Positions 21,880 to 57,815 of a DNA stretch of 64,000 nt are shown here, piece after piece. The stretch comes from Clostridia bacterium (lineage in GTDB: Bacteria > Bacillota > Clostridia > TANB77 > CAG-508), in assembly GCA_036307105.1 (NCBI GenBank), contig JAXJYD010000006.1, positions 18,050-82,049 of the forward strand. The letters are read 5' to 3'. The position numbers and the translations under genes were made by a program. The notes beneath the pieces were generated by a model. That model was not told where the DNA came from. It did not search any database and worked only from the letters and a program-made list of their open reading frames with translations. Numbering within the stretch: position 1 is the stretch's first letter; each line of letters opens with the position of its first letter.

Positions 21880-22154
21880 GTTTGAAAAATAATTGCGTTT
21901 TGGCGTTGTTAAACTGCATTCGAAAATCCATCACTGCTAACTGACGCTGTAACAGGCAAAGCCTTAACAGCCTCAGCTTGCGACGTGCAAGAGCACGCCT
22001 CGGATTCTATAAGGGTTCCCTGCAAACAGCAGGCTTGCCGAAGTTTGCAAGGGTAGAGGAGGAGCAACTGTAAGGCAATAGCTCTTTTAAGAGGTTGCCT
22101 TTGCAGTTTGCACCGACGAGTTTGCCTAGCCAAAAGCACAATTCTTTCCCAAAC
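21880..22154 (+). repeat. Structured repeat element, copy 1 (expanded, ~275 nt), immediately 5' of mfd
   Basis: Shares its 5' end (gaaaaataattgcgttttggcgttgttaaac...cgaaaatcc) and 3' end (ttgcctagccaaaagcacaattctttcccaaac) with copies at 28862, 49078 and 57715; GC-rich relative to the surrounding DNA. Confidence 0.7.
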
Positions 22155-22183
22155 CAATATATGCCTTTAGGAAGGAAAAAACA

Positions 22184-25100
22184 ATGAACACAATATTAGG
22201 AGAACTTGGTAAAAGTGCTAAGTTTATAGAGATTATAAATAAAATAGAAAAAGAAAAAAATAGTCCGATAGAAATATCGGGCTTAAATGACGTTGGGATG
22301 ATACAATTAGCATCTGCAATAAATGAGTTTGGTAAAAAGCCTATTTGTATATTAACATATAATGAAATACAGGCAAAAAAAATATATGATGATTTAAAAT
22401 ATTTTACAGAAAAAGTGGTTTTATTTTCTAAAAAAGAAATTGTAACATATGACTATATTGCTGAAAGTAAGGATATACCATATAAAAGAATTGAAGCGTT
22501 AAATGAAATTAATAGTAAAAAGAATTTGATAGTAGTAACAACAATTGAAGCAGTTATGCAAAGACTACCTGAAAAAAGTGTTTTATATAAAAATGAATTG
22601 AAATTTAAAATTGGAGATAGTCATAATTTAGATGATATAAAACAAAAATTAATAGACTTAGGCTATGTAAGATGTGACTTAATAGAAGGAAGGGGACAGT
22701 TTAGCGTAAGAGGTGGAATTTTAGATATATCTATAAATGATAAAATTGGAATAAGAATAGAATTTTGGGGAGATGAAATAGATTCTATTCGTAATTTTAG
22801 TATATCAAGTCAAAGATCTATAGAAACAAAAGAAGAGATAAAAATATATCCAGCACACGAATTTGTTTTAGAAAAAAGTATAGATGAAGTTTGTAAAACA
22901 ATCAAAGAAAAAACAGATGAGATTTTTGATGAAGAAATAAAAGAACAAGACATTGAACAAATAAAAATAGGAAATTACATTAGTAAAATAGATAAATATT
23001 TTGATTGTTTTTATGATAAACAATCAAATATATTAGATTACTTAAATAACAATTATTGTATATTTTTAGATGAAATAGGAAAAATTAAACAAAGAGTTAT
23101 AAATATAAAAGAAGATAATAAAAATTTAATTCAGGCTCTAATAGAAAAGGGAAGAAAAACACCTGATGCAATAATTAATATGCTAGATTATGAAGAAATA
23201 AATAATATATTAGAGAACAAACAAATATTGTATATTGAAAAACAAGATACAATATTGAATTTAACACAAGAAAAATATAAATTTCAATTTAGAAATATTA
23301 ATTATTATAAAAGAGATACAGAAAACTTTTTTGAAGACTTAGTAAAAGCTATAAATGAAAAGAAGAAAATTTATATATTATTAGAAACTAAAGAAAAAGC
23401 AAAAAAAATAAAGAAAATATTAGATGAAAAAGAAATATTAAATAATTTAGAAGAAAAATTAAACAAAACAATAATTGCTAAGTCAAGTGAAAGCATAGTA
23501 ACAATATCTGTAGGTAAATTATCTTCAGGTTTTGAAAACTTTGATACTAATCAATTAGTAATAATTGCAGATGAATTAGTTGATGGTGAGAAAAAAAGAA
23601 AATATATACAGAACACAGCATTTAAAGAAGGAGAAAAAGTAGTATTTGCAGACTTAAAAGTTGGAGATTATGTGGTTCATCAAAAATATGGTATTGGAGT
23701 TTATATTGGGGTAAATACTATACAAGCTGATAAAACTATAAAAGATTATTTAAAAATAAAATATGATGGAGACGATATTTTATATATTCCAATTAATAGC
23801 CTAGATACTATTAGAAAATATATTGGTGGAGATGTAATAAAGCCAAAAATAAATAAGCTTGGAAGCAAGGATTGGGAAAATACAAAAGCAAAAGTTAAGA
23901 AAAATTTAAGAGAAGTTGCCAAAGAATTGATTGAATTATATGCAAAAAGAGAAAAAGCAGAAGGGTTCAAATTTAGTAAAGACACTCCTTGGCAAAATGA
24001 ATTTGAAGGTAAATTCCCATATCAAGAAACAGATGACCAATTAAGATGTATAGAAGAAGTAAAAAAAGATATGGAATCTCCAAGACCAATGGATAGACTT
24101 TTATGTGGTGATGTAGGATATGGTAAAACAGAAGTTGCAATTCGTGCAGCATTTAAAGCTGTTATGGATCAAAAACAAGTGGCATATCTAGCGCCAACAA
24201 CAGTTTTGGCAGAACAACAATATAAAGAATTTAAAGAAAGAATGAAAGATTATCCAATTAAAGTTGAAATACTAAACAGATTTAAAAGTAAAAAATATCA
24301 AGATGAAGTAATAAAAAAATTAAAATTAGGTGAAGTTGATATTGTAATTGGAACACATAGACTGCTTAGTAAAGATGTTGAATTTAAGAATTTAGGACTT
24401 TTAATAATAGATGAAGAGCATAGATTTGGGGTTAAAGCAAAAGAAAAGATAAAGCAACTAAAAATGAATATAGATGTGTTAACAATGACTGCAACACCAA
24501 TACCAAGAACTATGCATATGTCAATTGTGGGAATCAGAGATATGTCTGTTATATATGAACCACCACAAAACAGAAGACCAGTTCAAACTTATGTATTAGA
24601 ATATGATGAAGAAACTGTAAAAGAAGCAATAACAAAGGAAATTGAAAGAGATGGGCAAGTATTCTATATTTTTAACAATGTAGAAGGCATTGAAAATAAA
24701 GCAAAACAAATTTCTAATTTAATACCAGAAGCAAATGTATGCTTTGCACATGGTAGAATGACAGGAAGCAAGATAGAAGAGATAATGCAAGATTTTATTG
24801 ACAAAAAGTATAATGTTTTAGTATGTACTACAATTTTAGAAACTGGAATTGATATACCAAATGCAAATACTATAATAATAGAAAATGCAGATAGAATGGG
24901 ATTAGCACAGTTATATCAAATCCGTGGAAGAGTTGGAAGGTCTAACAGACAGGCATATAGTTATATTACTTATAAAAAAGATAAGATGCTTTCAGAAGTT
25001 GCAGATAAAAGATTAAAAGCAATAAAAGAATTTACAGAGTTTGGTTCTGGATTTAAAATAGCAATGAGAGATTTAGAAATTCGTGGAGCAGGAAGTTTGC

Positions 25101-25652
25101 TTCGGAGAAATTCAATCAGGACACTTAGAGCAAGTAGGATATGATACTTATTGTAATTTATTAGATGAAGTAGTAAAAGAAATGAAAGGTATTGACTTCA
25201 AAAAAGAGGAAGAAATTCAAATTGATTTAGATGTTACAAGTTATATACCAGATGAATACATATCAGATGCTAACCAAAAAATTGAAGTATATCAAAATAT
25301 TGCTTTATGTAGAAACGAAGAAGATATTCAAAATGTTATAGATGAAGTGATTGATAGATTTGGCAATATGCCAGAACAACTAGAAAATTTAATAGATATA
25401 GCAAGGATTAAATATATTAGCAAAAAGCTAGATATTGAGAAAATAGTAAGCAGAAGAAATGGAGTAGTATTTACATTTAATCCAAACACTGTTAGTGAAA
25501 AGATTGATATACCAATGATAGTTGAACAGTATGGTAATAGAATTAAGTTTTCTTCTGGAATAAAACCAATGGTGACATTAGAAATTAAGGATACTAGTGA
25601 TAGGAATTTATTAAGAGAAGTAACTGAGTTTGTTAAGTTTCTTAATAAATAG
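22184..25652 (+). CDS. mfd: Transcription-repair coupling factor Mfd, requiring a +1 shift at the in-frame CGG at 25103
   Basis: 986 aa N-terminal ORF with the helicase motifs (GDVGYGKTEVA, DEEHRFG) ends RGAGSLLRRNS...*; the +1 frame from 25104 reads GEIQSGHLEQVGYDTYCNLL..., the conserved Mfd C-terminus; the context is CTT-C-GGA-GAA. Confidence 0.85.
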
Positions 25653-56181: not shown

Positions 56182-57351
56182 CTATTTTTTGCTATCTGAA
56201 ATCCATTTTTCAAATTCTTTTGGGGTAATTTCTTTATTTAGGTATTTTTGTTTTATTATAGCTCCGTCTTTTTTATACTTTTCAAATCTAGCGATGGCAG
56301 TATCTGTTCCGTAATGGGAAACAGAACTAGCAAGAGACATATATCTTTTTCTATATTTATCTAAAAGTGTATCTTCTTTTAGAGATTTTTTATAAGCTAA
56401 TTCCTTTCCAATTTGCCTACAAGTTTTGCCAGTGTTTTTATATTCTACATTACAATATTTAGTTTCCTTTAAATTTGAAGGAACAAAATAATATCCACAA
56501 TTTTGACATTTCCTTATAGTGTTATGGTTATCAGACATAAATTCTTTAAATATTAGAGCTATTATTGCAAAAATGTCATCACTCTCAAAATAGTAAGGAA
56601 TATTATATTTATCAACATCAATATTTACAAAGATTAAATCAAAAGTTTCAAATTTAATATTTAATTTCTCCATAAATCCATTTATTTCTGTTTCATTATA
56701 TTTAATTGATTTATCTTCTAAAAAGTTTTTTTCATCTTGCCTTATATCCTGTATGTCTTCTGGAGTAAATTCTGCTTCTTCTTCAATTTTTTTGAAAAAA
56801 TCAGTATCATATGGTAATCTTAAATTTTTTAATAAGGTATACTTAAGATATAAAAATTCTTCTTTATATTCTTTTACAATTTCATTTAGTTCGTTATTAA
56901 ATTCGGAAAACGAAAGCCTCAAATGTTTTGATGAATTATGATTTGCTTTTTTTATTTTAGGATGTTTTCTATAATACATGCTTTCAAAACAAAACCAAAA
57001 AACAAAAGATCGACAATCTTCATCATTTTCAAAATTTGTATTTAAAAATATAAGTAGAAAAGAACCTATTGGCTCAATCATATGTTCAGTTCTATATGAT
57101 GAAAAAAATATCTTTTTACTTTTATCATAATATATGCGTTTAAAAATAAATAATTCTAGTCCGAGATTTTTATCAAAAGCTAGTTTAAAATCCAAATGGA
57201 ACACCTCCACATCAAACAACCTAAAATTAATAAAAAATTTTTTGAGATTGTACAGTGTGAATTTCAAAAATTCACAATTATAATGTATACAACACCTAAT
57301 TGACATAATTTTACTACAAAAAGTAGAAAAAGTCAAAAAATGGAAATGCAC
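56182..57351 (-). CDS. Hypothetical protein with a C-terminal zinc-ribbon (CQNCGYY...C..C); the true start is probably internal
   Basis: The long minus-strand ORF has a hydrophobic low-complexity N-terminal extension that is probably not translated; the conserved-looking C-terminal 250 aa has CxxC...CxxxC. Confidence 0.4.
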   Translation of the reverse strand: MHFHFLTFSTFCSKIMSIRCCIHYNCEFLKFTLYNLKKFFINFRLFDVEVFHLDFKLAFDKNLGLELFIFKRIYYDKSKKIFFSSYRTEHMIEPIGSFLLIFLNTNFENDEDCRSFVFWFCFESMYYRKHPKIKKANHNSSKHLRLSFSEFNNELNEIVKEYKEEFLYLKYTLLKNLRLPYDTDFFKKIEEEAEFTPEDIQDIRQDEKNFLEDKSIKYNETEINGFMEKLNIKFETFDLIFVNIDVDKYNIPYYFESDDIFAIIALIFKEFMSDNHNTIRKCQNCGYYFVPSNLKETKYCNVEYKNTGKTCRQIGKELAYKKSLKEDTLLDKYRKRYMSLASSVSHYGTDTAIARFEKYKKDGAIIKQKYLNKEITPKEFEKWISDSKK

Positions 57352-57714
57352 ATTGATTTCTTAGCTCTAGGAACGAAGTGACATAGAGATAAGATATGCA
57401 GTGCAAAATTGAATAGTAGTTACAAGTACAAATAATGATACTTTCGTCTGGCTAACGTGATGTAAAGGGGCGATTCTCTAAAAAGAGGAATGAGGGCAAA
57501 TCTCATATGGGAACAAATCCACTTGTAACAGTATAAAAACCTAAAACTTGGAAAAAATAAAACAAGAGGAGTGAGGCTATTGGAAGAAAAAAAGAAATAT
57601 AAGAAAAAGAATGATTTTAAGATAAATGTATTTTTTAATGAAAAAGGAGACGCATTGGAGAGAATTATTGAAAGAGCGTTTGTAAATTATGTATCGAAGA
57701 AATAATCATCATCC

Positions 57715-57815
57715 TGCGTCGTTAAAATGAAATAGAAAATCCTCAACGTACAACATGTACGCCTGCGGTGTTTCTATTTCATTTTGCCTAGCATTATAAC
57801 AATTCTTTCTTCGAT
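57715..57815 (+). repeat. Structured repeat element, copy 4 (diverged), ~180 nt upstream of the serine recombinase
   Basis: gcgtcgttaaaa...gaaaatcct...cgtac-aacat-gtacg...cctgcgg...ttttgcctagc...acaattcttt aligns block by block with copy 2; it is embedded in a perfect 14-nt inverted repeat aaatgaaatagaaa/tttctatttcattt. Confidence 0.55.

Follow-up and report, generated by a model that had tools for sequence, protein, structure and literature searches.

Short GC-rich repeats stand ahead of genes at four places in the 64-kb window, that is, the whole stretch of clostridial DNA analysed here, and raise the question of whether they are mobile DNA, regulatory RNA or binding sites. The initial annotation had described them as a four-member family with terminal inverted repeats and a covarying central hairpin. 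We find that they belong to a family of ~122-base hairpin repeats of Clostridia intergenic DNA that previously had no name.

Four hairpins in the window

A repeat search recovered all four plus-strand copies where they had been placed, with the 5' block present in four and the 3' block in three. The 23-nt 5' block and the 21-nt 3' block occurred three times each with at most one mismatch, against zero expected from shuffles. The copies are spaced 7–20 kb apart in core operons and are, as first described, GC-rich islands (35–47% GC versus 25.6% across the window). Each folds into a single long imperfect hairpin, with folding z-scores of −3 to −7 against dinucleotide shuffles.

Copy 1 (21880–22154, plus strand), in the mfd leader, is a hairpin expanded to 275 nt. 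It retains the closing stem and both standard arms (5' and 3') despite two internal inserts with approximate limits, whose presence had been recognized from the start. Because these inserts intervene, the covariance model matches the copy at its two ends only. Insert 1 (21930–21983, plus strand) is an additional GC-rich stem-loop that lies 5' of the apical hairpin, and this module recurs at the equivalent position of a copy from a different species and locus (L075:3510-3693; 87.5% identity over 96 nt). Insert 2 (22008–22119, plus strand), structured and ~112 nt long, lies on the 3' side; a second example was looked for and not found. The 3' tail of copy 1 (22155–22183, plus strand; caatatatgcctttaggaaggaaaaaaca) carries the mfd Shine-Dalgarno (SD) and fits the family tail consensus AGATTTGTGCCTTTAGAAAGGAATGA.

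In the leader of the XRE / DUF1016 genes, copy 2 (28860–28983, plus strand) forms a canonical 124-nt hairpin (128.5 bits, model R1), and its tail (28984–29013, plus strand), whose sequence complements the 3' arm end, holds an SD (ttggaaaggg). Copy 3 (49077–49198, plus strand), a canonical 122-nt hairpin scoring 137.1 bits with the covariance model, lies between AbiEi-like and AbiEii genes; its tail (49199–49230, plus strand; ctgatttgtgccaatggaaaggagagaaaaaag) bears the SD for AbiEii, whose TTG start is at 49231. Copy 4 (57693–57815, plus strand), within a Mob_Pre / serine-recombinase element, belongs to a diverged subfamily and has a degraded middle stem. It nevertheless scored 71.7 bits (E 2.5e-13) with a covariance model trained without it, and resembles subfamily copies at L040:3427, L047:6685 and L084:3697. 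The reported nearness to downstream starts was borne out: ~30 nt for mfd, 33 nt for AbiEii, 12 nt (first TTG) or 30 nt (likely ATG) for XRE, and at least 183 nt for the recombinase gene.

Promoter-like sites lie 29 nt upstream of copy 1 (21823–21851, plus strand; TTGTAA, 17 nt, TATAAT, with TG) and 16 nt upstream of copy 2 (28816–28844, plus strand; TTGACA, 17 nt, TAAATT, with TG), both being consensus matches only, of a kind expected almost by chance in DNA this rich in AT. Together with the operon position of copy 3, they make transcription of the elements plausible.

Fold and spread of the family

The unit is a ~122-nt hairpin with a covarying basal stem, an irregular and strongly conserved middle stem, and covarying inner stems. 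Its internal loop is a fixed 3x3 (5' G-U-Y / 5' C-U-A), and UCA(A) and CCUC flank the apical hairpin. The covariation first noticed in that hairpin (CGTGC/GCACG, TGTAC/GTACA and CGTAC/GTACG) holds and extends over 82 copies, in which pair 68/84 is CG in 53 and UA in 21, and pair 71/81 is AU in 41 and GC in 39. In diverged subfamilies, covariation reaches even inside the "conserved" middle stem. Standard pairs filled 95.0% of pair cells, as against 35–48% with the partners slid, double-sided changes affected 22 of 40 pairs, and 0 of 500 shuffles came up to any of the measures. The hairpin fold is kept more strictly than in neutral DNA, and the selected secondary structure proposed at the outset is supported: the elements are single selected hairpins with genuine covariation.

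The count of four proved a large understatement. The 3'-arm 21-mer had 96 exact matches in ~38 species of uncultured gut Clostridia, and the covariance model found ~116 copies, often 2–3 per 8 kb. The repeats are non-coding and dispersed, number at least tens of copies per genome, and occur in one clade of uncultured gut Clostridia with AT-rich DNA. No Rfam family matched the copies, and the comparison with known repeat families, set beforehand as a refuting test, was likewise negative. Collections of viral, plasmid and phage sequences did not contain the element, and a conserved reading frame was looked for in it without result.

More than 90% of copies are co-oriented with their flanking genes. 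Same-strand genes lie within 150 nt on both sides of 54 copies and on one side of 39 more, and ~11 copies have an opposite-strand neighbour. The upstream stop codon falls within or adjoining the 5' base of the hairpin, clustering at −13, −6 and −2 to +5, and two reading frames are closed by the 5' end of the unit (T-TGA, AA-TAA). A distance of 21–38 nt usually separates the 3' end of the hairpin from the next start codon. About half of the copies have a conserved 3' tail of ~25–35 nt that ends in an SD shortly ahead of this start codon; it is conserved between copies at different loci and absent ahead of element-free genes.

Insertion, inversion and constraint

The suggestion of MITE-like mobility gained ground from comparisons of filled and empty sites. 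The AbiEi-AbiEii spacer measures 158 nt in the window, copy 3 included, versus 9 nt in relatives with 79–97% identity of the AbiEii protein, and in one element-free AbiE module (L109) the flanks share 91.5–93.4% nucleotide identity. By this sequence comparison, copy 3 is an insertion into the AbiE module. L074 and L075 lack the element where L017 and L092 carry it, and one metagenome-assembled genome (MAG) has 100% identical copies at three loci. At the def-fmt junction, two species carry a copy in opposite orientations, an in-place inversion. One relic copy and several solo arms also exist: solo 5' arms terminate at GGCGTT and a solo 3' arm begins at GCCTAGCC, while in the mini copy L025, GTTTTT is joined to GCCTAGCC, so that the conserved internal loop is where breakpoints cluster. 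Collectively, these data show that short spacers ahead of genes have gained and lost the unit, which has also been inverted within them; its direction nearly always matches that of the genes.

Terminal inverted repeats of the classical kind, on the other hand, were not supported, the outermost 2–9 bp varying and covarying between copies. Neither such fixed repeats nor a clean target-site duplication, a transposase or an autonomous parent element was found at or around the loci covered.

Once settled, copies are inherited across species and change several times slower than synonymous sites. Orthologous copies differ by ~3.3% outside the forced 21-mer, compared with 15.8% at fourfold sites, an estimate conditional on both orthologues retaining the 21-mer used to find them. 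Locus-specific variants are common to different species, and some copies (L038, the relic) decay near-neutrally.

Known repeats and competing readings

ERIC (enterobacterial repetitive intergenic consensus), like the family here, consists of imperfect palindromes of ~125 nt present only in transcribed intergenic DNA (operons, untranslated regions), in tens to hundreds of copies, with longer variants through inserts at fixed internal positions and high interspecies sequence conservation. The two have no sequence similarity and differ in hosts (Gammaproteobacteria versus uncultured Clostridia), and only the family here has a near-fixed orientation, abuts the upstream stop codon and often brings its own SD tail. 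A TA target duplication is reported for ERIC and is not seen here. The known effects of ERIC and Correia elements run through ribonucleases that attack the transcripts in which they lie, RNase E at a site in the mRNA hairpin of ERIC, and RNase III in Neisseria, where it cleaves Correia transcripts within the paired inverted repeats (PMC10969869); the role proposed below would resemble that of ERIC by analogy. BOX and RUP repeats of Streptococcus pneumoniae are Gram-positive analogues (PMC3049150). Correia, BOX and RUP are likewise short, non-coding, dispersed, gene-adjacent and co-transcribed repeats that fold as RNA. None of the Correia hallmarks (fixed 26-bp inverted repeats, TA duplication, IHF site, promoters) was found in our family, whose basal stem instead covaries, nor were the A-B-C modules of BOX or the IS630-type transposase tie of RUP.

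REP and REPIN sequences, with their RAYT transposases, are also dispersed hairpin repeats with conserved arms, a more variable middle and lineage-specific populations. REPs, which are known to help protect mRNA 3' ends (cf. PMC3733652), are units of 20–40 nt headed by GTAG or CGTC, and two such units make up a REPIN. The arms here, unlike REPs, are not themselves palindromes and lack such a head, and no RAYT gene was seen around the element loci examined. Integron attC sites (e.g., the 123–126 nt Vibrio cholerae repeats) share similar-length imperfect palindromes, structure conserved above sequence, extrahelical or mismatched bases, a single orientation, and a start at or in the upstream ORF end with a stop shortly before the next ORF. 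However, the ends here read 5'-GTTG...CAAC-3' against the attC order 5'-RYYYAAC...GTTRRRY-3', and copies are scattered in core housekeeping operons instead of cassette arrays beside intI. Integrons are not known in Firmicutes. The intercistronic RNase III hairpins of phage T7 offer a functional analogy only: they too are irregular, with internal loops, between cistrons of polycistronic mRNA. Through them the upstream message keeps a protective 3' hairpin and the SD downstream is freed. The T7 hairpins are demonstrably cleaved, are shorter and do not form mobile repeats, whereas our family is likened to them by predicted fold and position.

Which strand and which nucleic acid matter can be asked of the pairs themselves. 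In those that are mostly Watson-Crick, G.U occurs 28 times and A.C 47 times; two fixed plus-strand mismatches (A.C, C.A) become G.U on the opposite strand, and the minus strand was the better folder in 83 of 83 copies with RNA and DNA parameters alike. The wobble pattern does not single out plus-strand RNA. These near-equal intermediates and the better-folding minus strand agree with a DNA-level element, as do the breakpoint clustering, the in-place inversion and the identical copies at several loci. A site-specific recombinase or HUH/Y1-type transposase would act on its single-stranded-DNA hairpin, on the model of attC sites, REP/REPIN-RAYT or IS200/IS605 ends, or the hairpin would serve a replication-oriented function, and gene co-orientation would merely mirror gene-replication co-orientation. 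The hairpin may serve in DNA as a recombination or binding site, but as the main account we hold this quite unlikely: core sites have no attC arrangement, copies sit 7–20 kb apart in core operons instead of integrase-linked arrays, the GTAG-type head is missing, and a partial test found no Y1 or other transposase near ~97 loci. Moreover, the plus strand, the one exposed on the lagging-strand template and in transcription bubbles, folds less well than the minus strand; the reading does not explain why old, immobile copies are constrained; and an SD-bearing tail and frame-closing 5' end are sensible only for mRNA. A gene-specific leader (riboswitch-like or thermosensor) or a stand-alone or antisense small RNA is very improbable. 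The element is structured, GC-rich and directly upstream of start codons, its 3'-arm end is predicted to pair with the SD and its minus strand folds well, but the 72 downstream proteins span 83 Pfam families of unrelated housekeeping genes, so this is no regulon, and a leader specific to mfd, XRE or AbiE is not supported. Conservation falls mostly in stems, not loops, and Rfam and reading-frame searches were negative. A stand-alone small RNA is further disfavoured because the element lies within operons and brings neither promoter-like nor terminator-like signals with it; no promoter or intrinsic terminator was found on either strand.

Host domestication as operon "punctuation" RNA is another reading, unlikely in our judgement, in which spread would be secondary to function. 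A dedicated RNA-binding protein or endoribonuclease would recognize the hairpin with its fixed internal loops and process or regulate many polycistronic mRNAs, in the way that RNase III sites set apart the early genes of phage T7. The strong constraint on orthologous copies would fit, as would unpaired motifs (G.A / U.U / Y.C loop, UCA...CCUC) that are invariant across subfamilies with altered stems, the fixed, co-oriented placement between stop codon and SD, and the conserved SD-bearing tail. Yet no candidate partner protein was found, G.U is not enriched over A.C, some copies decay near-neutrally, one orthologous copy functions, or is at any rate retained, in the inverted state, and close relatives lack the element at the same junctions with no obvious replacement.

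The family is probably a mobile or mobile-derived ERIC/BOX/MITE-like intercistronic repeat, transcribed as an mRNA hairpin. Such an element would be built for harmlessness inside operons, stopping the upstream frame and providing an SD, and co-transcription with the host operon would yield an intercistronic mRNA hairpin. From fold and position we infer roles in processing, stability and SD insulation: the likeliest would be that of a 3' protective or processing structure, and the hairpin may also insulate, its pyrimidine-rich 3' arm being kept from pairing with the downstream SD. Purifying selection on single copies is unusual, as it runs counter to what a purely selfish repeat would predict.

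Four copies in the window and a family in gut Clostridia

The initial annotation had placed four copies of a structured repeat on the plus strand, and this was borne out by a repeat search of the window, by folding and by counts of exact blocks. All four hairpins lie on the plus strand, at 21880-22154 (copy 1, the mfd leader), 28860-28983 (copy 2, the XRE/DUF1016 leader), 49077-49198 (copy 3, within the AbiEi-AbiEii operon) and 57693-57815 (copy 4, within a Mob_Pre/serine-recombinase element). In the repeat search, the 5' block came up in all four copies and the 3' block in three of them. 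Counts of the exact blocks (21 nt for the 3' block, 23 nt for the 5' block) gave three occurrences of each at one mismatch or fewer, when none was expected by chance. Each copy folded into one long imperfect hairpin, with fold z-scores of -3 to -7, and the GC content of the elements was 35-47% as compared with 25.6% for the window. Copy 1 retained the standard arms and carried two internal inserts (~21930-21983 and 22008-22119), the first of which recurred at the equal internal position in L075:3510 (L-numbers denote fetched loci from other MAGs or species). A covariance model from which the diverged copy 4 had been left out still gave it 71.7 bits (E 2.5e-13). Weaker model matches at 34273-34330 and 6843-6895 were AT-rich hairpins unrelated to the family. 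A consensus scan placed promoter-like sites directly upstream of copies 1 and 2.

The surroundings of the copies showed several features of their own. Downstream of copy 1, mfd (22184-25652) was read as two overlapping ORFs, 22184-25144 and 25083-25652, with the TRCF domain in the second; a frameshift, pseudogenisation or a sequencing error accounts for the split. Within ORF 18868-19695, a repetitive coding stretch (19073-19509) consists of three 51-nt repeats and, after them, eleven tandem repeats of 21 nt; the encoded protein has no assigned function. Directly upstream of copy 2 lies a YhgA-like gene (Transposase_31, PD-(D/E)XK; 27963-28694); a tie to the repeat family was rejected, as a homologue was present in only one other locus (L042). 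A giant ORF of 2611 aa (40424-48259) stands immediately upstream of the AbiE module. Exact-protein look-ups of the AbiEi-like and topoisomerase proteins gave no match, probably owing to start-codon choice. The mobilisable element at 52330-60163 comprises an HTH_36 gene, a Mob_Pre relaxase and a large serine recombinase, and its recombinase region was 79% identical to L059:4719-6825. Gene fragments flank it (55310-56116, a C-terminal piece of a radical SAM gene, and 59756-60163, a GH94 catalytic-domain end), which suggests that it was inserted into a glycoside phosphorylase gene.

Scanning the pattern GCCTAGCCAAAAGCRCAATTC across one genome per species yielded 96 stretches, all but two or three of them full elements. 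They were spread over ~38 MAGs of uncultured gut bacteria labelled "Clostridia / Clostridium sp. / Eubacteriales", the hosts being human, mouse, chicken and ruminant. A single MAG had up to 14 exact matches to the seed, a 21-mer of the 3' arm. R1, the covariance model of the repeat, brought the number of distinct copies in the fetched loci to ~116, of which ~22 were diverged and lacked the seed. Element length was held tightly at 121-124 nt (121-127 nt when membership of the MITE class was assessed), and two or three copies were often found per 8 kb, with four in the 64-kb window. The viral contigs, plasmids and phages searched gave no match, and carriage by phage or plasmid was rejected. Neither did a literature search by sequence strings retrieve a paper with the element sequence. 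The seed 21-mer was also found at L080:1348-1368 and L096:1953-1973, in one Chthoniobacterales contig and one other Clostridia MAG; the former appears to be a chance match within GC-rich DNA and the latter was a lone 3'-arm fragment. In L034, L044, L046, L068 and L009, copies stood exactly at contig ends, which suggests that the repeat breaks metagenome assemblies.

Structure and conservation of the hairpin

Structure was scored over 40 pairs on an alignment of 82 copies. Standard pairs made up 95.0% of cells, as opposed to 35-48% when the 3' partners were slid by 1-3 columns; 22 of the 40 pairs had changed on both sides, and none of 500 shuffles reached any of these measures. The two basal pairs, the stem adjoining the internal loop on its inner side, the middle stem and the apical hairpin covaried most strongly, the last of which had been put forward from the four window copies and held on this larger alignment. 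Pairing ended exactly at columns 7/139 (GC:31 AU:31 UA:5), the next pair being 8/138 (GC:39 UA:14 AU:12 CG:3). The invariant part of the element was its interior rather than its outermost pairs, the invariance of the 3' arm being partly imposed by the search seed. In diverged subfamilies the middle stem covaried (GCGTTTTGGC/GCCAAAAGCAC, ACAATTTTGGC/GCCAAAATTTA, GGTCATCTTGC/GCAATATAACC), and three features remained fixed: a 3x3 internal loop (G.A, U.U, Y.C), UCA(A) and CCUC on either side of the apical hairpin, and a C.A mismatch in the middle stem. No conserved reading frame ran through the hairpin. A small ORF or translated leader starting from a conserved TTG was rejected as a conserved feature, the frame of the conserved TAG relative to that start being distributed 32/30/19 and the stops scattered; an SD-like (Shine-Dalgarno) motif did often lie at start-codon distance before the hairpin.

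Orthologous copies, common to up to four species, differed by 0-4%, compared with 4-30% at fourfold sites of the flanking genes. Pooled over independent pairs, the values were ~3.3% for elements and 15.8% for fourfold sites; these pooled rates leave out the forced 21-mer, through which both orthologues of each pair were found, as well as the L038 pairs. The L038 orthologue diverged at a near-neutral rate. Gene conversion was considered as a source of this similarity, and was rejected since locus-specific variants were common to several species while copies within the same genome differed.

Position in operons, mobility and decay

Same-strand genes were found within 150 nt on both sides of 54 of 116 copies and on one side only of 39 more, and only ~11 copies had an opposite-strand neighbour. 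Relative to the hairpin base, upstream stop codons clustered at -13 (the element's own TAA), -6 (its TGA) and -2 to +5, and the downstream start mostly lay 21-38 nt past the hairpin. About half of the copies carried a conserved 3' tail, AGATTTGTGCCTTTAGAAAGGAATGA, which ended a few bases before the start codon and whose SD was complementary to the end of the 3' arm. The tail was common to copies at different loci within one genome and missing from element-free genes. It is not the ordinary SD of the host genomes, as element-free genes have varied SDs and lack GTGCCTTTAGAAAGGAATG. Among 44 leader-type copies, that is, those with no ORF ending at the element, 24 had an SD-like motif before the hairpin, as against 16.5% of random 18-mers, which fits insertion between SD and start codon. 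The 72 downstream proteins spanned 83 Pfam families (Mur ligase, Fmt, Ack, Pta, AccA and sigma factors among them); they are encoded by unrelated housekeeping genes, and families with several members were only orthologous sets.

A comparison of homologous sites lacking the element, as the initial annotation had proposed, revealed both filled and empty sites. The AbiEi-AbiEii spacer measured 9 nt in modules whose AbiEii was 79-97% identical and 158 nt in the window. Against L109, at 91.5-93.4% nucleotide identity, the alignment broke precisely at the two codons that bound the spacer, the stop and the start. Core-operon junctions were filled in L017 and L092 and empty in L074 and L075. Copies 100% identical to each other were found at three loci of one MAG (CAMVKF). 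At the def-fmt junction of two related species (L016:497-632 and L086:6895-7030), the 122-nt hairpin was inverted in place and matched at 93% identity in reverse; the SD tail had not been inverted and, like the flanks, was colinear. Many copies had an SD-like motif on both sides, at the AbiE site TAGGGGAG ... AAGGAGAG, with no exact duplication, and the positions just outside the stem were neither direct repeats nor paired. No clean target-site duplication was found, no arm pairs enclosed an ORF as an autonomous parent would in ~97 loci, and no transposase was found near the element in the loci examined.

Decayed forms comprised one relic and solo 5' arms ending at GGCGTT (L017:6919, L019:245, L043, L073:5172 and L089). 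In a 66-nt mini element (L025:6982-7047), GTTTTT was joined directly to GCCTAGCC. Together, the ends of the solo arms and this junction indicated that breakpoints cluster at the conserved 3x3 internal loop. A composite at L058:6646-7016, made up of a copy-4-like element and the 3' half of another, was tandemly duplicated with a 191-nt period, and akin nested fragments occurred in L085 and L056.

Nature and possible role of the element

ERIC, REP, BOX and similar dispersed palindromic repeats were described decades ago, and their status as junk, parasites or tools of the host is still unsettled. The present data fit a mobile or mobile-derived dispersed repeat of the ERIC/BOX/MITE-like kind, and the operon position and co-orientation, as read from sequence, are compatible with the ERIC-like class of transcribed intergenic palindromes. 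The family itself is new and unnamed; the kind of element is already known. Like MITEs, it is short, non-coding and multi-copy, with presence/absence polymorphism at homologous sites, but it lacks fixed terminal inverted repeats recognised by a transposase, the outermost pairs varying and covarying. The initial interpretation was partly supported: the MITE-like reading stood, and fixed terminal inverted repeats, a gene-specific leader and a stand-alone sRNA did not. The sRNA failed the defining tests, and a riboswitch or leader of the regulon type was rejected in view of the functionally unrelated downstream genes. The annotation had also called for a covariance model and an Rfam search; R1 was built, and membership of a known RNA family was rejected, as only two tRNAs in the whole window reached the gathering threshold of Rfam 15 and permissive scans of copies 1 and 2 to E=10 gave only chance matches (mir-4178 and HOTAIR_2). 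An intrinsic terminator was likewise rejected: the hairpin is followed by CAAC-yAGAUUU with no U run, and terminator scans found no whole-element terminator on either strand, the short terminator-like matches lying inside copy 1 (minus strand, 22051-22034) and copy 4 (57759-57771).

Other palindromic classes were also weighed and rejected on their defining features. REP/REPIN units are palindromes of 20-40 nt headed by GTAG or CGTC, in genomes that encode a RAYT, whereas the arms of the element are not self-palindromic and have no such head. Integron attC sites bear R'' (RYYYAAC) 5' and R' (GTTRRRY) 3' and form cassette arrays beside intI, whereas the element ends GTTG...CAAC, in the reverse order; copies are also separated by 7-20 kb and scattered through mfd, smc, def-fmt and acc genes, which counts against such arrays. 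Palindrome-associated elements derived from IS200/IS605 have separate left and right subterminal hairpins, insert 3' of a fixed tetra- or pentanucleotide and go with a TnpA or TnpB relative, whereas here a single hairpin spans the unit, the 5' flank is variable and no TnpA/TnpB relative was present in the loci examined.

As a dispersed repeat, the element would be built for harmlessness inside operons: its 5' end closes two reading frames, its 3' end often supplies an SD, and it would be transcribed together with the genes of its host operon, forming a hairpin between cistrons. That old copies are constrained and the loops fixed suggests something more than passive junk. The RNA hairpin might serve in processing, protect 3' ends or insulate the SD; a protein might recognise it; or breaking the stem might carry a cost. 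A role at the DNA level, in which the hairpin is the substrate of a recombinase or transposase, is a live rival, favoured by the breakpoints at the internal loop and by a strand-neutral wobble pattern. The minus strand folded better in 83 of 83 copies with both RNA (-45 vs -35 kcal/mol) and DNA parameters, because the fixed A.C and C.A mismatches of the plus strand turn into G.U on the minus strand; the plus strand has fixed U.G pairs of its own. Among those pairs that are mostly Watson-Crick, G.U was seen 28 times and A.C 47 times, and the wobble excess typical of a strand-specific RNA was thus missing.

The family is an unusually clean data set, with dozens of species, abundant compensatory changes, fixed non-canonical loops and orthologous copies several times more conserved than synonymous sites. 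Its position from stop codon to SD is precise, its tail bears an SD, and its sites include filled, empty, inverted and decayed ones. The selection question thus becomes testable with existing gut metagenomes and metatranscriptomes. In practice, the repeats will interrupt MAG assemblies, several copies being at contig ends; gene callers may be misled by them at start codons, and they could help to mark strains of a gut lineage that is poorly known. We regard it as rather unlikely that the hairpin has been domesticated as an "operon punctuation" module read by a protein. The reader of its fixed G.A/U.U/Y.C internal loop and UCA/CCUC loop would then be a dedicated RNA-binding protein, an endoribonuclease or a hairpin-DNA recombinase, and the module would have spread as a self-contained stop-hairpin-SD cassette targeting the spacer before start codons. 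If true, this would be considerably more interesting, the module then serving an entire clade of gut Clostridia in the processing or tuning of numerous unrelated polycistronic mRNAs.
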